Source: an uncultured virus (IMG/VR IMGVR_UViG_3300042519_001519)
Taxonomy: Duplodnaviria > Heunggongvirae > Uroviricota > Caudoviricetes
Reading direction: 5' to 3' (one strand)
Virus record (IMG/VR): IMGVR_UViG_3300042519_001519
Span: 56,047 to 76,046 of that record
Length of the DNA: 20,000 nucleotides
This document shows, in pieces, positions 2 to 13,823 of this stretch. Position 1 is the stretch's first letter. Each line of letters starts with the position of its first letter. The position numbers were made by a program, and so were the translations under genes. Under the pieces are notes generated by a model. The model was not told the DNA's origin and searched no databases. It worked only from the letters and a program-made list of their open reading frames with translations.

Positions 2-418
2 TCCTTAAGAAAAGAAAAAATTGATGCTATTGGGTACGATATTAACGATGTAGTAGAAGATCAGGACTTTCTCTTTAAAAAGAGTATCTTTGACCTAAAC
101 CATAAATCAGAACTAATTATCTGCCTGGAAGTAGCCGAGCACATAGAGACAGAACACAACGACAGTATTGTTGAAAAGTTATACGAAAACCTTAAACCAG
201 GAGGTACTTTAATCTTCACAGCAGCACATCCAGGACAGCAAGGAATAGGTCATATAAACTGTCAAACAAAAGACTACTGGTGGGAGAAGTTTGCAGAAAA
301 AGGATTAGTCCGAGATTTAAAAGCAGAGAAGGATTGGGAAGATTATTTTGATCAAGGAAGAGAGTACATGGGATGGTTCCGTATGAACAAGCTCTTTTTA
401 ACTAGAGTAGGATCATAA
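2..418 (+). CDS. Class I SAM-dependent methyltransferase (Methyltransf_23-like), 5'-truncated by the window edge
   Basis: Not in ORF track. Frame 2 is open from the window start to TAA at 416-418 and translates as ...DAIGYDIN...ELIICLEVAEHIE...LKPGGTLIFTAAHPGQQGIGHINCQTKDYW..., typical C-terminal half motifs (CLEVAEH, LKPGG) of class I MTases. Confidence 0.8.
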   Translation, partial: SLRKEKIDAIGYDINDVVEDQDFLFKKSIFDLNHKSELIICLEVAEHIETEHNDSIVEKLYENLKPGGTLIFTAAHPGQQGIGHINCQTKDYWWEKFAEKGLVRDLKAEKDWEDYFDQGREYMGWFRMNKLFLTRVGS

Positions 419-438
419 AAAGATATTTCTTATATTTA
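408..438 (+). promoter_or_regulatory. Putative promoter, variant copy (TAG-N20-TATATTTA)
   Basis: Same 20-nt spacing and downstream box as five other TTG-N20-TAT(A/C)TT sites; one mismatch in the upstream box. Confidence 0.5.
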
Positions 439-453
439 TTAACATATAACAAC

Positions 454-480
454 AGTGTCGTAGCACCACTTTAAAAACAC
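454..480 (+). ncRNA. PreQ1-I riboswitch-like aptamer, copy 1 (5' UTR of the ORF486-queD-queE operon)
   Basis: AGTG-TCGTAGCAC-CACT-TTAAAAACAC: 4-bp stem, UCGUAG..AC loop and A-rich tail ending AAAAAC; covaries with the copy at 4042; ATG at 486. Confidence 0.65.
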
Positions 481-485
481 ACCTT

Positions 486-809
486 ATGGCAACATATTTT
501 AAGAAGCCTTCCATAGAGAAAGCAGAACAATCGGTTATAATGGATAGAGTTCTAGAACAAAAAAAGAAAGAACTCTCACCAGGAGATTTCAAAACCTATG
601 CAAACTTTACTACTCAGCAAGAACTGCTTGAAGAAGCAACTAGAAGAAATCTATTAGCAATTCCAGATCCAAAACTACATCAACAAATTTCATTTATCAA
701 ATCCGGTATAAGAATACTTGGATACTTTCTATTACCTTTTAATCTTTTATTAGGAGCTGGAGTATTAATTTTAAGTGAAATAGTTGGAATTTACGAAGAA
801 TTAGTTTAA
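486..809 (+). CDS. Hypothetical membrane protein with C-terminal hydrophobic hairpin
   Basis: ORF track; C-terminus HQQISFIKSGIRILGYFLLPFNLLLGAGVLILSEIVGIYEELV is hydrophobic; first gene after the promoter and riboswitch-like motif. Confidence 0.7.
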   Translation: MATYFKKPSIEKAEQSVIMDRVLEQKKKELSPGDFKTYANFTTQQELLEEATRRNLLAIPDPKLHQQISFIKSGIRILGYFLLPFNLLLGAGVLILSEIVGIYEELV

Positions 810-818
810 ATTAGAGTT

Positions 819-968
819 ATGAGAGAGGTGAACGATCACGTAAAAGAAGCTTTAGGTATAAAGCCTAAGAAGAGATTTAAGAAAGACTACACAAAAGCAT
901 TTGTATGGATAGGGCTTGCTCTAATCACAATTGCTATATGGACAACAATTTACAATTTAATATTTTAA
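819..968 (+). CDS. Small membrane protein (49 aa)
   Basis: Not in ORF track. AGTTATG start context; MREVNDHVKEALGIKPKKRFKKDYTKAFVWIGLALITIAIWTTIYNLIF has one TM helix and fills the gap to queD. Confidence 0.6.
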   Translation: MREVNDHVKEALGIKPKKRFKKDYTKAFVWIGLALITIAIWTTIYNLIF

Positions 969-971
969 CAA

Positions 972-1433
972 ATGAAATTTCAAGCAACAAAACTATTTGA
1001 CGGCTACTCAGCATGCTTTCGACAATGGAAAGCAGAGGGTACACATTGCAGATTTCTTCACGGCTATGCCGTATCATTCCGAGTATGGTTCGAAGGAGAA
1101 CTAGACGAAAGAAACTGGGTATGGGACTTCGGAGGAATGAAAAGAGCTAAAGGAAACATCGAAGGATATTCTCCAAAAGCATTTTTCGATTACCTATTAG
1201 ATCATACAACTATTGTAGCAGAGGATGATCCTTATATGGATACATTTAAACAAATGCATAACGACGGCGTTATACAGTTAAGAATACTTCCTGCTACAGG
1301 ATGTGAACGATTTGCAGAATACTTACATTTAAAAATCAATACATTTTTACTTGAAGAAACAAACAGTAGAGTAAGAGCTACTAAGGTAGAAGTTTACGAA
1401 CATGAAAGGAACTCAGCATCTTATGGTGAGTAA
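972..1433 (+). CDS. queD: 6-carboxy-5,6,7,8-tetrahydropterin synthase (QueD/PTPS family)
   Basis: T-fold motifs: FRQWKA..HCRFLHGY, WVWDFGGMK, LDHT, GCERFAE, VEVYEHERNSA. Confidence 0.9.
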   Translation: MKFQATKLFDGYSACFRQWKAEGTHCRFLHGYAVSFRVWFEGELDERNWVWDFGGMKRAKGNIEGYSPKAFFDYLLDHTTIVAEDDPYMDTFKQMHNDGVIQLRILPATGCERFAEYLHLKINTFLLEETNSRVRATKVEVYEHERNSASYGE

Positions 1434-1554: not shown

Positions 1555-1745
1555 AACTGAGTGAAATAATTTACCTAGCAACAAAAGCATTCGATAAAGG
1601 ATGGGACTTTGAAACTCTAAAGTACGGAGATGATTTGTATGGAAAGGAAAAATATGCTTCTGAAGTATGGGAGTATGTAGAAGAGCTGCAAGAAATAGGA
1701 AGAACTGAATTTTACATAAAATATTGTCAATACAATTTATATTAA
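1551..1745 (+). CDS. Hypothetical protein
   Basis: ORF track; tightly packed between neighbours. Confidence 0.6.
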   Translation: MKLSEIIYLATKAFDKGWDFETLKYGDDLYGKEKYASEVWEYVEELQEIGRTEFYIKYCQYNLY

Positions 1746-1746
1746 G

Positions 1747-2520
1747 ATGAAAAGAATAGAAGATTATAACAAAACACTTCCCATTGTAGAGCTTTATACA
1801 GCAGTACAATCAGAAGGAAGTAGAGCAGGTTATCCAACCGTAGTAATCAGAACAACAGGCTGTACTCACAGATGTTGGTTTGGTGATGGTGGATGGTGCG
1901 ATTCTTGGTACACAAGTATACATCCTGAAAAAGGACATATCAGTTTTCAAGATATTATTAACATGTATGATGCCAATCCCCACATCACAGAGATGATGCT
2001 AACAGGAGGATCACCAACAATGCATCCAGCATTAGTAAACGAATTAACACATTTTGCACATGAAAGAAATATTTTCATTACGATTGAGACCGAAGGAAGT
2101 CATTTTCTTGAGACAGATTACCCAATTAATCTATTATCAATCTCCCCTAAGTTCAGTAATTCTGTCCCTAAGGTTGGCATTGCAACACCTCAAGGAGACA
2201 TTACAGATGAGAAAATGATTAAACAGCATAACAAGCTAAGATTAAACTACGATGCAATATCCAAATCAATCTCTTATCATTCAGACTACCATTTAAAACC
2301 GGTATGGGATGGAGAGGATCAAGAAGCATTAAAAGAGATTATGAATTGTATTAAAATGCTAGACATACCAGAAGATAAAGTATGGTTCATGCCAGCAGGA
2401 GATTCAAGAGAAGCTTTATTCAAATCATATCCAAAAATGTTTGATTGGGTTAGAGATAACGGTTATAGATTGACCTGGAGACCTCACATCATTGCATTTG
2501 AAGACCAAAGAGAAGTGTAA
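1747..2520 (+). CDS. queE: 7-carboxy-7-deazaguanine synthase (radical SAM)
   Basis: ELYTAVQSEGSRAGYPTVVIRTTGC N-terminus, Cys triad CTHRCWFGDGGWCDS, LTGGSP, IETEGS, SISPK, C-terminal RPHI. Confidence 0.92.
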   Translation: MKRIEDYNKTLPIVELYTAVQSEGSRAGYPTVVIRTTGCTHRCWFGDGGWCDSWYTSIHPEKGHISFQDIINMYDANPHITEMMLTGGSPTMHPALVNELTHFAHERNIFITIETEGSHFLETDYPINLLSISPKFSNSVPKVGIATPQGDITDEKMIKQHNKLRLNYDAISKSISYHSDYHLKPVWDGEDQEALKEIMNCIKMLDIPEDKVWFMPAGDSREALFKSYPKMFDWVRDNGYRLTWRPHIIAFEDQREV

Positions 2521-3607: not shown

Positions 3608-4003
3608 ATGGCACTAAAAATAGGAAATAAAGTTTATTTAAGCTGGGATGATATCAACATCTTAGTAGAAGATTTAGCAAATACAATAGCAGCATCAGGA
3701 GCAGAGATTAAATCGATAACAGGTATTCAAAGAGGAGGATTAATACCAGCAGTAATGATCTCCCACAAGCTCCACATACCTTACGTTAGTAGAATAAATA
3801 AAGATACTTTGGTAGTAGATGATATTTGTGATACAGGAGAGACGTTAAAAAATACTATTGGAATGTATACTGCAACGCTTCATTACAAACCAACAGCAAT
3901 CTTTACTCCAGACTTCTACTCAAAAGAAGTAGGAACAGAGTGGATTGTATACCCTTGGGAAAGAAATGACTCAGAAACTATTCAAGATTATTTGAAAAAA
4001 TAG
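3608..4003 (+). CDS. Type I phosphoribosyltransferase (xanthine/guanine PRT-like)
   Basis: LSWDDI, GIQRGGLIPA, PRPP-binding LVVDDICDTGETL, WIVYPWE. Confidence 0.88.
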   Translation: MALKIGNKVYLSWDDINILVEDLANTIAASGAEIKSITGIQRGGLIPAVMISHKLHIPYVSRINKDTLVVDDICDTGETLKNTIGMYTATLHYKPTAIFTPDFYSKEVGTEWIVYPWERNDSETIQDYLKK

Positions 4004-4034
4004 TTGCAGGATAAAGTAAAAAATGTTATATTAA
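4004..4034 (+). promoter_or_regulatory. Putative promoter TTG-N20-TATATTAA upstream of folE
   Basis: TTG at 4004-4006, TATATT from 4027; spacing identical to the other copies. Confidence 0.65.
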
Positions 4035-4041
4035 ATAAAAC

Positions 4042-4068
4042 GGAGTCGTAGAACCTCCATAAAAACAA
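4042..4068 (+). ncRNA. PreQ1-I riboswitch-like aptamer, copy 2 (5' UTR of folE)
   Basis: GGAG-TCGTAGAAC-CTCC-ATAAAAACAA; two compensatory stem changes versus copy 1; folE ATG at 4075. Confidence 0.7.
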
Positions 4069-4074
4069 TCTTAT

Positions 4075-4782
4075 ATGTCAAATAAAAAATTTATCGACGG
4101 TACAGAATTAGTACAAGCCGGATTCGCTAATGGTATTTCCTCTCAATTGGCAAAAAAACAACTAACAGAAGGTCCAGAAGCAAGATTAACTGAAGTAGAA
4201 AAGCAACACATCATTGAAGATGCAGCAGAAGCTTTCGGACAATTCCTTTCAGCTTTAGGATGTGATTGGCAGAATGATCCAAATTCATCTGATACTCCTA
4301 AAAGAGTTGCAAAAGCATACGTAAACGATTTATGGGCAGGTCGATTTGAACCACTAACAAGAATTACAGCATTCCCTTCTGATGGTTATGATGGAATAGT
4401 ACAAGAGAGTAATATACCAGTTACCTCAATGTGCTCACATCACCACCAAACAATTTCAGGAGAGGTAAGTATAGCTTATGTTCCTTCAGCAGATGGAAAG
4501 GTAGTTGGGCTTTCAAAATTAAATCGAATTGTAGAGCAGTTTGCTAGACGTGGAGCTATTCAAGAGCAGTTAACAGTTGCAATTCATAATGCAGTAGATA
4601 AAATCTGTGAAGGTAATCTAGGAGTAGCAGTAGCAATTTCAGCAACACATAACTGTGTATCGTGTAGAGGGATTAAACATCAGGGAGCTTCAATGCAAAC
4701 AGCAAAGTTAACAGGGTGTTTCTTAGATGAAGCATCAGCAAGAGCAGAATTCTATACAAATATTAAACTTGGAAAAAAATAA
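4075..4782 (+). CDS. folE: GTP cyclohydrolase I
   Basis: DTPKRVAKAY, SMCSHHHQ, VVGLSKLNRIV, IQEQLT, HNCVSCRG (Zn ligands). Confidence 0.93.
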   Translation: MSNKKFIDGTELVQAGFANGISSQLAKKQLTEGPEARLTEVEKQHIIEDAAEAFGQFLSALGCDWQNDPNSSDTPKRVAKAYVNDLWAGRFEPLTRITAFPSDGYDGIVQESNIPVTSMCSHHHQTISGEVSIAYVPSADGKVVGLSKLNRIVEQFARRGAIQEQLTVAIHNAVDKICEGNLGVAVAISATHNCVSCRGIKHQGASMQTAKLTGCFLDEASARAEFYTNIKLGKK

Positions 4783-5560: not shown

Positions 5561-5763
5561 TGCAAGCAGCACTAGACCATTTAGAAAAGCATAAAGTGTT
5601 TATTGATACTTTAGGTATAGATATGATTCCTTTATCAGAGGCATATAAAGCAGTTGAGAAGTCTATCGATAGTCAACTGGCAGAAGTTATGGAAACATTA
5701 CAAGCACAGTTAGGAGGATTAGTAGAAGATTTACAAGATATAACACCAGAAGATAATGATTAA
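5560..5763 (+). CDS. Hypothetical protein
   Basis: ORF track; overlaps both neighbours (translational coupling). Confidence 0.6.
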   Translation: MQAALDHLEKHKVFIDTLGIDMIPLSEAYKAVEKSIDSQLAEVMETLQAQLGGLVEDLQDITPEDND

Positions 5764-6550
5764 GATAGCACACGAATCACCGAAGAGTATCTTTAAAGAA
5801 GTACAGAAGTATACTGACTATGATTATGCATTAGTGCATTTATTTGAAGAAGATCCAGAATACTTAAAACAGTTTCAAGATGCTAAAGAAGCAGGTAGAG
5901 AAATTATTTTAGATAATTCTATCTTTGAATTAGAAGAAGCTTTTGATGCAGAGAAGTTTGCAGGCTGGGTATTAGAATTAAAGCCAGATTGGTATATAGT
6001 TCCGGATGCTTTAGAGGATGCAAAGAAGACTGTACAGCAAATGACAGAATGGAATAACAAGTATAAAAATCTTCCAGGAAAGAAAATAGGAGTTGTTCAA
6101 GGAAAGACTTACAGTCAAATTAAGACTTGTTATGAGTATATGGATAAGATTGCAAATGTAGATATGATTGCAATTTCATTCGACTACTCGTACTATACAA
6201 ATACTATTTCACATCCTAACAAGTATGTTAGTTGGATGCTAGGAAGGGTTAAGCTACTAGGAGATCTATTGAGAGACGGTGTTATAAACGAAGAGAAGAA
6301 GCATCACCTATTGGGATGTGGATTACCTCAAGAGTTTTCTTTCTACTCAGACTATAAATGGATCTATTCTTTAGATACTTCTAATCCAGTTGTACATGGT
6401 ATAAAAGGAGTTGAGTATAGAGCAGATGGATTATGGTCAAAAGAGTCTCAAAAGTTATTTGAATTAATCAACTACGTACCGGAAGATACGAATATGATTC
6501 TTCAGAACATTCATAAATTCAGATGGTTTGCAAATGGACGCAAAGTATAA
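5756..6550 (+). CDS. dpdA: TGT-fold DNA guanine transglycosylase, DpdA3-like
   Basis: TGT barrel-equivalent motifs IILDNSIFE, IVPDALED, GVVQGK, HHLLGCG, SLDTSNPV; no Zn-binding tail; lies within the preQ1 synthesis cluster. Confidence 0.78.
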   Translation: MIKIAHESPKSIFKEVQKYTDYDYALVHLFEEDPEYLKQFQDAKEAGREIILDNSIFELEEAFDAEKFAGWVLELKPDWYIVPDALEDAKKTVQQMTEWNNKYKNLPGKKIGVVQGKTYSQIKTCYEYMDKIANVDMIAISFDYSYYTNTISHPNKYVSWMLGRVKLLGDLLRDGVINEEKKHHLLGCGLPQEFSFYSDYKWIYSLDTSNPVVHGIKGVEYRADGLWSKESQKLFELINYVPEDTNMILQNIHKFRWFANGRKV

Positions 6551-6716
6551 GATAGGGGAAATGGTTATTATAAATCTCGATAATGAGATTATAGATGCCG
6601 AAGTATTTGGAATAGTAGACAGTAATTCAGGAGGAAAACCTTCGTACAGTTTAAGAGTGAAAGGAAATTTTATCTTTATGAATGAGGATAGAATAATAAG
6701 TATATCACATGAATAG
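6528..6716 (+). CDS. Small hypothetical beta-rich (SH3/KOW-like) protein
   Basis: ORF track; KYKIGEMV start pattern; overlaps neighbours; true start may be 6534. Confidence 0.5.
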   Translation: MQMDAKYKIGEMVIINLDNEIIDAEVFGIVDSNSGGKPSYSLRVKGNFIFMNEDRIISISHE

Positions 6717-7236
6717 ACCTTGGATAGCATTCTTTAGTCAAACAGGATCAGAGATCGTAGAAGTATCAAAGCTACTAGGAAGATGGCCTGACCTTATTAT
6801 TACAAACGAAAGACCAGAACATCTTAGAAAGATTCATCCTGCTTTAGAAAATAAGCACTTAATCTTCGTAGACAATAAGCCTTCAGAAGAAGAACTATTT
6901 CCTCTATTGGCTCAGTATGATAATGCTTTAGTAACTCTTCATGGATGGTTAAGGATTATGCCACCAGGTATTTGTAATCGATTTGAAATCTATAATGGAC
7001 ATCCAGGACTTATAACTCAGTATCCAGAACTAAAAGGAAAAGATCCTCAGCAAAAAGCTTTTGACTTAGGATTAGAACATTCTGGATGTGTTATTCATAG
7101 AGTAACAGAAGGAGTGGATGAAGGAGCTATACTTTTACAGAGACAAGTTTCTATAAAAGGGTTGGAAATAGGAGAATTATTTCATATCTTACATAGTATA
7201 TCAGTAAGTCTTTGGGTAGACTTTTTAAAAAATTAG
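6709..7236 (+). CDS. dpdN: PurN-like 10-formyl-THF-dependent formyltransferase, probable preQ1 formyltransferase DpdN
   Basis: FFSQTGS, LHGWLRIM, YNGHPGL (NxHPxL), SGCVIHRVTEGVDEGAILLQ; adjacent to the DpdA3-like gene and queF. Confidence 0.8.
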   Translation: MNRPWIAFFSQTGSEIVEVSKLLGRWPDLIITNERPEHLRKIHPALENKHLIFVDNKPSEEELFPLLAQYDNALVTLHGWLRIMPPGICNRFEIYNGHPGLITQYPELKGKDPQQKAFDLGLEHSGCVIHRVTEGVDEGAILLQRQVSIKGLEIGELFHILHSISVSLWVDFLKN

Positions 7237-7764: not shown

Positions 7765-8691
7765 ATGACACAAGAATTAAATCAAGCAGAAGTTGTAAAG
7801 ATTGCAGGAAAGCATCTAGGACAAGTAGGTGGAGCAGGATATAGCGATACTTACGATCCAAGTCTATTGGTAGAAATTCCACGTTACTTGAATAGAGAAG
7901 CGTATGGAATTGACGATAATAACCTTCCATTTGTTGGAGGAGATGTTTGGAATGCATACGAAGTATCTGCAATCACTACAAAAGGATTACCAGTAGTAGG
8001 AATGTTAAAGATTTGGTATCCAGCCGATTCAAAACTTCACGTAGAGTCTAAATCAATTAAATTGTATTTGAATTCATTCAATATGACTCAATTGGGAGAT
8101 ACAGATCATGAATGTATTAAGTTACTAAAAGAAAGAGTAAAGAAAGACCTATCTGACTTACTACAGACAAAAGTACAGGTAGAGATGTTTACATCAGAGC
8201 ATTCTCCAAGCTATGCCTTTAAAGGATATGCACCATTGGATGCTTTGGTTGACTTAAACAAAATTGAATTTACTTCTTACCATTCAGACGCTACACAGTT
8301 ACAGTCAGAAGAAGTATCTGAAGACTTTGAAATTGGAGAAATAAAAATACAGTCTAATCTTTTAAGATCAAATTGTAGAGTAACAAACCAACCAGACTGG
8401 GGTGATGTATTTATTCATATTAAACCAACAGCAGGAGTTGTTCCTGATTTAGAATCATTAGCAAAATATATTGTAAGTCACAGACAAGTAAGTCACTTCC
8501 ACGAAGAGATTTGTGAAATGATCTACATGCACTTAAAAGAAGCTTACAATCCAGAAGAATTAATGGTAGCTTGTCTTTATACTCGTAGAGGAGGATTGGA
8601 TATTAATCCAATTAGAGCTTCCCATAAGAAATTAATCCCAGGATTCTTTACAGATATTACTTGTAGAATGGCTAAAACATTACGTCAGTAA
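7765..8691 (+). CDS. queF: NADPH-dependent 7-cyano-7-deazaguanine reductase, bimodular type
   Basis: WNAYEVS, VESKSIKLYLNSF (QueF motif), SNCRVTNQPDWG (catalytic Cys/Asp), FHEEICE, YTRRGGLDINP. Confidence 0.93.
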   Translation: MTQELNQAEVVKIAGKHLGQVGGAGYSDTYDPSLLVEIPRYLNREAYGIDDNNLPFVGGDVWNAYEVSAITTKGLPVVGMLKIWYPADSKLHVESKSIKLYLNSFNMTQLGDTDHECIKLLKERVKKDLSDLLQTKVQVEMFTSEHSPSYAFKGYAPLDALVDLNKIEFTSYHSDATQLQSEEVSEDFEIGEIKIQSNLLRSNCRVTNQPDWGDVFIHIKPTAGVVPDLESLAKYIVSHRQVSHFHEEICEMIYMHLKEAYNPEELMVACLYTRRGGLDINPIRASHKKLIPGFFTDITCRMAKTLRQ

Positions 8692-11880: not shown

Positions 11881-12186
11881 ATGTCACAAGAGTTATCAGC
11901 TAACAGCGACAGAGTTATTGTAAAGCCTGTTGAATCAGGAGAAGAAAGATTCGGAAGTATTATCATTCCGGATATGGGGAAAGAAAAGCCAGAAATGGGT
12001 GAAGTAGTTTCCGTAGGTCCAGGACGCCAGTCTGAATTTGGACAATTTATTAGAGTAGAAGCCAGTGTAGGAGATGTGGTATTGATTCCTAAGATAGGAA
12101 CAATCCGTATTGACTTTGAAGGTCAAGAATACTTTATACTTCCAGACAGAGAAATTTTAGCAACAATCAGAAAATCACAAGAGTAG
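11881..12186 (+). CDS. groES: Co-chaperonin GroES
   Basis: DRVIVKP, GSIIIPD..KEKP..GEVVSVGPG, VGDVV, EILA. Confidence 0.95.
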   Translation: MSQELSANSDRVIVKPVESGEERFGSIIIPDMGKEKPEMGEVVSVGPGRQSEFGQFIRVEASVGDVVLIPKIGTIRIDFEGQEYFILPDREILATIRKSQE

Positions 12187-12188
12187 TT

Positions 12189-13823
12189 ATGTCAAAACAA
12201 ATTAGTTTTTCAAAAGAAGCTAGAGAGAAATTACTATCAGGAGTAAACCAACTAGCAGACGCAGTAGTATGTACATTGGGACCGTCAGGTAGGAATGTAT
12301 TTATTCAACAACAAGGAGGTAATCCAACCTCAACAAAGGATGGTGTAACAGTAGCCAAAGAAGTAGAATTGGAAGATCCAATTGAGAATACTGGAGCACA
12401 AGCTGTAAAACAAGTAGCAATCGAATCAGCTAGATTGGCTGGAGATGGTACTACAACAGCAACATTACTTGCAAGAGAAATTTATAGCCAAGGATTATCT
12501 GAGCTACAAAATGCAAATGCAGTAGAAGTAAAAAGAGGAATCGATATTGCCACTAAAGCAGTAGTCGAATACTTAAGAGAGAAGTACTCTAAAGAAGTTA
12601 CAGAAGAAGAACAAATCAAACAAGTAGCAACAATCTCAGGTAATAATGACCCAGAAGTAGGAAATCTTATTGCAACAGCAATGGATAAAGTTGGTAGAGA
12701 TGGATTAGTAACTATTGAAGAATCTAAAACAGGAGAGACTTATCTCGAAACTGTAGAGGGTATGCAATTCAACAGAGGATACAAGTCACCTTACTTCGTT
12801 ACAGATAACAATACTATGACTTCAGTATTGAACAATCCTTTAATCCTTATCACAGATAAAAGAATCCAGCACGTAAAAGAGATGCTTCCTTTATTGGAAT
12901 CAGTATCACAACAAAATAAAGACTTACTTATCATTGCAGATGATATTGACGGAGAGGCTTTATCGACATTGGTTGTAAATAAGATGAGAGGAATTCTTAG
13001 AGTAGTAGCAGTTAAAGCTCCTGAATTTGGAGATAAGAAGAAAGCTATGCTTGAAGACATTGCAGCTCTTACTGGGGGTACAGTTGTATCTGAGGAGAAA
13101 GGAATGAAGCTAGACAAATTCGATTTACAGTGGTTTGGTAATTCAAGAAAAGTAACAGTAGGTAAAGATGATACTACCATTGTAGATGGTAAAGGAACTG
13201 AAGAAGCTATTGCAGAGAGAATTGAGCAATTAAAAGAACAAATCGAGAATACAGTTTCACCTTACGAGATTGAAATCTTACAAGACAGATTAGCAAAACT
13301 TATCGGAGGAGTAGCTATGATTCATGTTGGAGGTCATACAGAGGTTGAAATGAGAGAGAAAAAAGATAGAGTAGATGATGCTCTTCATGCAACTAAAGCA
13401 GCTTTACAAGAAGGTATTTTACCTGGAGGAGGAATTGCTTTACTAAATGCTTCTTTCCACTTAACAGAGCATCCATTAGTAGCTCAACATCCAGATCAAG
13501 AAAAAGGATTTGACATTATAATCAAAGCACTTCAGAAGCCATTCAAACAGATCTTAGCAAATGCAGGAGAGACTTCAGAAGTAATTGAAGAGAGAGTAAA
13601 CTACATCTTTGACAATCACAAATGGATTGGATTTAATCCAAGAACAGGGGAGTATGTTGATATGTTAGAGGAAGGTATTATTGATCCAACTAAAGTAACA
13701 AGACTAGCTTTAGAGAATGCAGCATCAGTTGCAGGAACAATGTTAATCACAGAGTGTGTTATCACAAGTATAAAACCAAAAGATGAACAAGGAGCAGGAA
13801 TCGATCCTTCTCAGTTCATGTAA
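12189..13823 (+). CDS. groEL: Chaperonin GroEL
   Basis: [56 protein letters not shown]. Confidence 0.97.

Follow-up and report, generated by a model that had tools for sequence, protein, structure and literature searches.

Does a phage that encodes the synthesis of a modified guanine also sense how much of it has been made? This question is raised by a short element that occurs twice in the sequence of an uncultured virus of the Caudoviricetes, once ahead of queD and queE and once ahead of folE. The window, meaning the whole stretch of 20,000 nucleotides that was analysed, is the final 20 kb of the 76,046-bp virus record IMGVR_UViG_3300042519_001519 of IMG/VR (positions 56,047 to 76,046), whose completeness is estimated at about 47%. 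An initial annotation had described the element as a preQ1-I-like aptamer, that is as a relative of the class I preQ1 riboswitches, with an output independent of a Shine-Dalgarno (SD) sequence. Our comparisons indicate that it is likely to be a miniaturised, type II-like class I sensor of preQ1 or preQ0, located in a short phage 5' leader and repressing translation. Since the element looks like a bacterial preQ1 riboswitch reduced in size, this Flavobacterium-type phage probably monitors and limits its own synthesis of the modified guanine that enters its DNA.

The copy ahead of queD (copy 1) comprises 26 bases (window 454-479), and C478 of its tail is located 8 nt before the A of the ATG at 486-488. 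The copy ahead of folE consists of GGAG (4042-4045), the loop TCGTAGAAC (4046-4054), CTCC (4055-4058), ATAAAAA (4059-4065) and C4066 A4067; here the tail C is at -9 from the ATG at 4075 and the A-tract covers -14 to -10. The string, the coordinates and the two tail positions (-8 and -9) given in the initial annotation are thus exactly those of the sequence. Searching the window with the pattern TCGTAGNACCNNNNTAAAAAC and at most two mismatches yielded exactly these two matches, where 0.03 were expected (mean of 200 shuffles) and none of the 200 shuffles contained two or more. A script scan for stem, loop and A-tail across the whole 76,046-bp record again found the two copies only, and a covariance model built from relatives scored them with 48.5 and 45.8 bits, the next best site in the record reaching 16.9 bits. 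The motif therefore occurs, as had been claimed, at two sites that both lead folE or queD/queE units, a count which is valid for the known part of the genome since the record is about 47% complete. A third copy had been expected in front of queC and is absent according to both the script scan and the covariance model over the 76-kb record. The queC gene (record 37096-37743, about 19 kb upstream) is preceded by a promoter-like box of its own and a 67-aa open reading frame (ORF), and queF and dpdA of the same pathway have no element in front either.

We analyzed the distribution of the element in 80 viral loci with FolE homologues of 70-94% identity. The covariance model matched the folE leader in 46 of these loci, and in 17 it gave a second match 2.2-2.8 kb upstream; all 63 matches lie on the coding strand of the downstream gene. 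The remaining 34 loci show a TATATT-type box and a short A-rich leader from which the hairpin is absent. Because these element-less folE leaders keep the box and the short leader, the element appears as a discrete module between promoter box and start codon. A stem-free pattern, TCGTAGNACNNNNNWAAAAAC, has at least 125 matches on viral contigs; those listed divide into 64 with at least four contiguous flanking pairs and 61 with 0-3. Among the 64 listed matches that form a stem, the ORF that comes first downstream belongs to a small-ORF family in 34 cases and is folE in 23, queE in three and queD in two, and in two cases the contig ends. All 62 assessable stem-forming matches listed consequently head folE, queD, queE or the small ORF before queD, and such genes follow none of the 61 stemless matches listed (0/61). 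According to Pfam, the order behind the stem-forming matches is small ORF, 6-pyruvoyl-tetrahydropterin synthase (PTPS) and radical SAM enzyme, or PTPS and radical SAM enzyme, or GTP cyclohydrolase I. This is the placement of preQ1-I riboswitches, which are found in 5' leaders of queuosine/preQ1 genes, and copies before unrelated genes were not seen among the assessable matches listed.

The two sites are not always occupied together. Both copies are present in the window phage, only the folE copy is found in the cultured phage vB_FspM_immuto_2-6A (immuto), and the contigs of L048/L141 and of L049/L152 carry the copy of the queD operon only. In one folE leader (L060:2960-3003), which may represent a copy in decay, the stem AGUG/CACU and the A-rich tail are kept, with UUUUAACAC as loop and no tail C. 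A scan of genome contigs with GNGTYGNAGNACCNCNNWAAAAAC, a narrow pattern that diverged host versions would escape, returned 41 loci, with the element in one contig only, where it occupies both sites. This contig, NYWG01000135.1 (L231/L232; 5,922 bp, 33-35% GC), is filed under a metagenome-assembled genome of the Verrucomicrobiales and looks like a misbinned phage contig. Three bacterial look-alikes (L216, L238, L226) were judged to be chance, having stems but no same-strand downstream ORF and no Rfam match at E<=1. The covariance model (R1) gave no match at E<=0.1 in 151 genomes of the phylum of a Hymenobacter locus, and none in two further genomes, in a search that scored 48-150 candidates per genome and had no positive control.

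The structure was compared in 59 distinct instances, chosen for a 4-bp stem. In helix P1 of this set the outer pair is AU in 33, GC in 14 and UA in 12 instances and the third pair UA in 43 and AU in 16, and both G-C pairs are invariant. The covariation score of P1 was reached by none of 500 shuffles, it collapsed when the register was slid, and RNAalifold predicts the identical four pairs. As in preQ1-I, P1 is thus a covarying helix (two of the four pairs) with a closing G-C pair (59/59); a few relatives have 5-6 bp instead of the 4 bp found here. Within the loop, U1, A5, G6, A8 and C9 are invariant and C2 is conserved to at least 90%. Four adenines of the tail are invariant or nearly so, and an A follows the tail C in 59/59; the tail C itself was required by the search expression, and G463-C478 is hence possible in every instance. 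The segment L3 (WUAAAAA) has a length of 7 nt in 49/59 instances, and the distance from the tail to the ATG varies between 3 and 14 nt. Because the length of L3 is steady while the distance to the ATG varies, the A-tract seems to be tied to the hairpin and not to the start codon.

These positions can be set against the known ligand pocket. In the available text of a review, class I preQ1 aptamers are described as H-type pseudoknots in which adenines of L3 dock in the minor groove of P1 (PMC11625349). The ligand forms a Watson-Crick pair with the specificity C, which directly precedes the P1 3' strand and itself follows a U in type I and an A in types II and III; contacts to the other edge of the ligand come from U6 of L1 and from an adenine of L3, and the pocket has the floor G5-C16 and the ceiling C7+.G11-C30 (PMC11625349). 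With the putative floor G457 of copy 1 as position 0, U occupies +1, C +2 and G +6; A-C leads into the P1 3' strand, and the A-tract and a C come after it. The offsets of U, C and G equal those of U6, C7 and G11 in the Thermoanaerobacter tengcongensis aptamer (numbering of the review). The pocket equivalents would be C466 after A465, U458, A477, G457-C467, C459 and G463-C478. Their offsets agree with those of class I, and across the 59 instances each is either invariant or conserved to 90% or more. The A-C step is represented by A465-C466 and A4053-C4054 and also occurs in 4 extra model matches, and the L1 U (U458, invariant) and an A-rich L3 are likewise present.

With the type II aptamers of T. 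tengcongensis and Bacillus subtilis, as far as these are covered by the available descriptions, the element shares a P1 closed by the floor G-C, an L1 of U then C, AC before the P1 3' strand, and an A-rich L3 followed by a C able to pair with a loop G as roof. The linkage to preQ0/preQ1 synthesis genes is also common to both, with an OFF switch there and a presumed OFF switch here, and in T. tengcongensis too P2 is weak (2/4 canonical steps). In contrast to type II, P1 has 4 bp instead of 5, L2 3 nt and L3 7 nt, and P2 retains one conserved Watson-Crick pair; moreover, the element is phage-borne, buries no SD sequence, lies below the detection of the Rfam family RF00522 and precedes genes whose product enters DNA, not tRNA. 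The dimensions are those of the E. coli type III aptamer, which has been called the smallest one found in nature and has the floor G5-C15 (9-nt loop), a 3-nt L2, a short L3 of about 7 nt and AC (PMC10622847). Features of type III itself are UU after the P1 5' strand, a pyrimidine-rich loop and an AAGG SD partner touching the ligand (PMC10622847; PMC11625349), and in the review text available to us this type occurs almost only in Pseudomonadota (PMC11625349). The element, by contrast, has UC and GUAG in the loop, the tail C-A and no SD sequence. With the loop UCGUAGCAC and a tail that reads CACACC downstream of the copy 1 hairpin it falls outside the type III subgroup, and the dimensions alone agree. 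As judged from these comparisons, the element resembles type II in sequence and type III in size, has one P1 pair fewer than both and carries no SD sequence, and the functional likeness to preQ1-I that they predict is strong.

The expression platform is a different one. Between tail and ATG the tetramers GGAG, GAGG, AGGA and AAGG are absent in both copies and in all 59 distinct relatives (0/59), and no terminator-like sites were detected within 350-620 or 3950-4200. This bears out the earlier statement that the leaders have neither an SD sequence nor a terminator, and means that the usual platform of preQ1-I, an SD sequence in P2 or a terminator, is not found. The review describes no SD-free expression platform in its available part, which includes Bacteroidota in its list of phyla where class I sequences occur (PMC11625349); because of this listing, preQ1-I in an SD-less lineage is not unprecedented as such. 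The type I riboswitch of Carnobacterium antarcticum, as far as its description is available, also belongs to class I and regulates translation though it is separated from the ribosome-binding site, so that burial of an SD sequence is not the only route. It differs from the phage element by UC before the P1 3' strand, by two bound ligands and by an SD sequence that is still used.

What the leader offers to the ribosome instead is an adenine run. Flavobacterium ribosomes ignore SD sequences; the accessible part of PMC6847099 names mRNA structure and adenines at -3, -6 and above all -12/-13 as what tunes initiation. The A-rich motif at -14 to -11 is thought to lie near protein S1, and its replacement cut expression in F. 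johnsoniae by 60-90% (PMC6847099). In 56/59 instances the A-tract of the element overlaps -14 to -11, in agreement with the A-rich leader of an SD-independent lineage that the initial annotation had assumed. The SD-independent leaders of F. johnsoniae, in which an A-run at about -14 to -10 and low structure promote initiation according to the same accessible part, correspond to the element in that L3 fills these positions (PMC6847099). Ordinary Bacteroidia leaders, including those of aptamer-less folE genes, differ by having no conserved hairpin before the A-run. The tail C is located 7-9 nt from the ATG in 41/59 instances and 12-13 nt in 12/59.

From these features we propose how the element could work, taking up the idea of the initial annotation, with which all the sequence data agree. 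Free preQ1 (or preQ0) from the phage FolE-QueD-QueE-QueC-QueF pathway would pair with C466, stack between the G457-C467 floor and the G463-C478 ceiling, and draw the A-tract 473-477 into the minor groove of P1, giving a compact H-type pseudoknot. This pseudoknot would end 7 nt before the AUG, and its A-tract would at the same time be the -13 to -9 adenine run of SD-blind Bacteroidia ribosomes; docking of the ligand would thus deprive the ribosome of the adenine determinant as well as of its single-stranded landing site. The folded state should block 30S loading, and the small ORF, presumably with the coupled queD-queE genes, would no longer be translated. In the ligand-free state, which would be barely structured, A-tract and landing site would be left open. 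The folE twin would act likewise, and 7-deazaguanine synthesis would thus be under feedback control in its first three steps. As ligand we consider preQ1 likely, because QueF is encoded in the window and in 10/10 related records, or else preQ0, as type II aptamers bind both; their order of binding in the available review text is preQ1 > preQ0 > guanine (PMC11625349). More tentatively, and with some doubt, we suggest that this could be the smallest natural riboswitch aptamer (26 nt compared with the 30-mer of E. coli type III) and a new kind of platform, in which the ligand-binding L3 is itself the ribosome signal and no anti-SD pairing takes place. On this more doubtful reading the stripped-down P1 and P2 may purposely lower the affinity, so that a phage obliged to exchange all G of its DNA shuts the pathway only once free base accumulates.

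An alternative fold of copy 1 was observed in addition. GUGU (455-458) can pair with GCAC (463-466), which gives the hairpin of minimum free energy (-2.4 kcal/mol); in the absence of ligand, neither the P1 5' strand nor the putative specificity C would then be free. A hairpin of this type is impossible in the folE copy with its loop ...GAAC, and the pairing in copy 1 could be a built-in alternative fold or chance.

Several observations weigh against a preQ1 sensor. The curated model RF00522 (gathering threshold 39 bits) has no gathering-level match in the window and none at E<=10 on the 20 kb; it likewise missed 71-nt slices around each copy at E<=10 and, in a search of the whole record, these two sites. 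It failed as well on L073, a relative with a 5-bp stem, and only 1/4 slices tested matched. The one that did, the positional homologue L064/L067 (P1 of 5-6 bp, loop UUCGAAGCAC), has RF00522 as the best of 4227 families (21.8 bits, E 0.005), with a score below the gathering score. Formal membership in RF00522 is thus not supported by the curated model. The stem argues less strongly than its complete pairing suggests: the set was selected for the stem, so that "100% paired" is partly circular, and a natural exception, L018, has an A.A outer pair. Many of the instances are close relatives and not independent. Since the copy at the queD site hardly varies (AGUG/CACU in 33 instances), it is the folE site and the comparison between the sites that give the covariation. 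P1 has four pairs instead of the canonical five; the canonical preQ1-I architecture is a P1 of 5 bp, an L1 of 2 nt and a P2 of 4 bp (PMC10639078). P2 is unsupported beyond G463-C478: the next step is A.A in 59/59, further steps can pair in few instances (U4-N in 19/59, G3-N in 17/59), and loop variants with UCACAG carry the same tail without compensation. Extended P2 registers (CUA(U) just before the AUG, or with a bulged A) were dropped, being found in few sequences and not conserved. The thermodynamics are unfavourable, with the competing GUGU/GCAC hairpin as the minimum-free-energy structure of copy 1 and non-significant z-scores; free-energy folding was dropped as evidence, since with a motif of this size it speaks neither for nor against the fold. 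Finally, the A-run could be conserved partly for translation alone, as aptamer-less leaders also have one. Of the label "preQ1-I-like aptamer", the conserved pocket residues, the covarying stem and the tie to folE, queD and queE have stood up, and the parts not borne out are recognition of the copies by Rfam and a P2 beyond one G-C pair. For these two reasons we speak of a preQ1-I-like element and not of a demonstrated member of the family.

Could the same observations be explained otherwise? If the element were a translational operator, that is an RNA site for a phage or host protein with a merely coincidental likeness to preQ1-I, the failure of Rfam on the window copies, the unsupported P2, a hairpin that alone is barely stable and the near-invariance of the queD-site copy would all be expected. 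We consider this unlikely: the element is limited to three genes of the very pathway that makes the ligand of its look-alike (62/62 among the matches listed), every ligand-contact position is kept at the right offset, the stem is preserved by compensatory changes and not by sequence, and RF00522 is the best family of the L064/L067 relative. The lack of the element at queC, queF and dpdA also speaks, not conclusively, against a general pathway regulator. That the element acts as DNA, as a promoter-proximal operator or initiator region, is suggested by the conserved promoter-like box, which lies 7-15 nt upstream of it. This reading is nevertheless very improbable in view of the asymmetric conserved loop between arms that change in a compensatory way, the strand bias of all 63 model matches, and a spacing that is fixed to the tail while the distance from box to stem ranges from 0 to 18 nt.

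Two further explanations accept the aptamer and differ in its output or its ligand. A 7-deazaguanine aptamer could act on transcription or on the message, through ligand-dependent pausing, Rho-dependent termination or mRNA decay. Members of the preQ1 family can induce ligand-dependent pausing, according to the available review text (PMC11625349), and with a tail C 12-13 nt from the ATG, as in 12 of the 59 instances, direct occlusion is less obvious. There is, on the other side, no intrinsic terminator after either copy, the aptamer adjoins the start codon (7-9 nt in 41/59) and includes the initiation A-tract, and the leader is too short for an alternative helix; such an output therefore seems to us improbable. 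The same fold might instead have changed its ligand, to guanine for instance or to a phage-specific derivative of preQ1. Type II aptamers have a longer P1 and L2, variants with a switched ligand are noted for a related riboswitch class in the available review text (PMC11625349), and the closest cultured relative ends at formyl-preQ1 in its DNA (PMC10516641, in the part available). However, the three bases that face the guanine-like and the minor-groove edges (specificity C, U of L1, A of L3) are all retained, and the regulated genes make preQ0. The site of formylation (free base or DNA) is left undecided in the accessible part of PMC10516641. We regard a changed ligand as rather remote. A translation-repressing sensor of preQ1 or preQ0 accounts for the pathway placement, the compensatory stem and the pocket conservation, and none of the four alternatives explains these as well.

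The features of the two units and of their surroundings are compiled in Table 1.

Table 1. Features of the window that belong to the two elements, their leaders and the 7-deazaguanine genes
Feature	Window position	Strand	Evidence or remark
Promoter-like box CTTATATTTA	429..438	+	15 nt upstream of copy 1
P1 5' strand AGUG (DNA AGTG), copy 1	454..457	+	pairs with 467-470
9-nt loop UCGUAGCAC (DNA TCGTAGCAC)	458..466	+	L1 U458 C459; P2 5' side G460-G463; L2 C464 A465 C466
P1 3' strand CACU (DNA CACT)	467..470	+	covarying pairs, RNAalifold
L3 UUAAAAA (DNA TTAAAAA)	471..477	+	A-tract 473-477 at -13..-9 from the start codon
Tail C-A	478..479	+	C478 putative partner of G463, minimal P2
107-aa ORF, first gene behind copy 1	486..809	+	no Pfam, no PHROG family
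49-aa ORF, between small ORF and queD	819..968	+	sequence; ORF walk on near-identical locus L140
queD (PTPS family)	972..1433	+	PF01242, E 5.4e-15
queE-like radical SAM enzyme	1747..2520	+	PF04055; syntenic immuto gene annotated 7-carboxy-7-deazaguanine synthase
Promoter-like box GTTATATTAA	4025..4034	+	before copy 2
Twin aptamer GGAG-UCGUAGAAC-CUCC-AUAAAAA-CA	4042..4067	+	before folE
folE (GTP cyclohydrolase I)	4075..4782	+	PF01227, E 2.6e-44
DpdA (DNA guanine transglycosylase)	5756..6550	+	96% identity to annotated immuto DpdA; pathway context, outside aptamer control
Formyltransferase	6709..7236	+	Pfam
queF (preQ0 to preQ1 reductase)	7765..8691	+	PF14819 and PF14489; pathway context

Across queD to folE, phage immuto has 84% nucleotide identity to the window and an identical gene order. 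In its DNA, G is fully replaced by 7-(formylamino)methyl-7-deazaguanine (formyl-preQ1; 345,000 per 10^6 nt), and the PurN-like formyltransferase DpdN is the proposed final enzyme, both according to the available part of PMC10516641. QueF was found in 10/10 related records searched, and the element is present in 8 of those. As a discriminator between ligands QueF was rejected as uninformative, since the ten records include two without the folE aptamer. Other Pfam matches on the + strand of the window are a phosphoribosyltransferase, a MazG-like pyrophosphatase, a family A DNA polymerase and GroES/GroEL; the GroES and GroEL homologues are phage-encoded beside the DNA polymerase (window 11881-13823).

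The small ORF behind copy 1 belongs to a phage-only family, whose homologues form one BLAST cluster of 27 with lengths of 65-107 aa. Members differ at the N-terminus and share a conserved hydrophobic C-terminus (PDPKLHQxISFxKSxIR...EIVGIxEELV), and in the atlas their neighbours are hypothetical proteins of viruses. Immuto has neither the queD-site aptamer nor the small ORF (L209:5940-6030 compared with window 420-830), and its promoter box leads directly into the 49-aa ORF, the counterpart of window 819-968. Aptamer and small ORF behave as one module which is gained or lost together.

The box in front of the element is inferred to act as promoter. In related loci it has the form TTCTTATATTA or TCGTATATTA ahead of the element, and the same form stands ahead of element-less folE leaders; in 57/59 distinct instances a TAnnTT word ends 0-18 nt before the stem. 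A scan of the copy 1 leader for the sigma-70 consensus gave no match at the box. TATATT-type boxes were found as TTCTTATATTTA (429-438), GTTATATTAA (4025-4034) and, in the queC unit, TCATATATTAAG (L259:1205-1216), and are probably the promoter type of this phage group; we take them to resemble the Bacteroidetes -7 element TAnnTTTG. Directly before the queE ATG at 1747 the sequence TTTATATTAAG is located (window 1736-1746, record 57782), possibly an internal promoter through which queE would be expressed independently of the upstream aptamer. A 540-nt contig from one marine metatranscriptome corresponds exactly to window 444-983 and has a higher depth than the contig extending upstream; in a second RNA study a contig passes through window 406-1151. 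A start near 444 was discounted as a reading of these contigs, because assembled contigs show neither RNA ends nor transcription and only one study stops there.

In the literature covered we found no riboswitch on phage 7-deazaguanine genes and no preQ1 riboswitch of phages or Bacteroidetes; the supplementary alignments of McCown 2014, outside this coverage, could contain such sequences. The word "riboswitch" has 0 occurrences in the main text of PMC10516641 and PMC6884629, two main papers on such phages, and control of the pathway is therefore unaddressed there. In the GenBank records of phages immuto and phiST no such feature is annotated in the stretches examined. Experiments are feasible, because the folE copy is present in the cultured pair vB_FspM_immuto_2-6A and Flavobacterium sp. 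LMO8.

The element would offer a natural minimal preQ1 pocket for structural work and ligand design, a test case for riboswitch gating of translation where ribosomes ignore the SD sequence, and an instance of a divergent member overlooked by the curated Rfam model. Phages with 7-deazaguanines are known for their enzymes, and a metabolite-sensing RNA on folE and on queD-queE would, if true, be the first regulatory layer described for DNA hypermodification.

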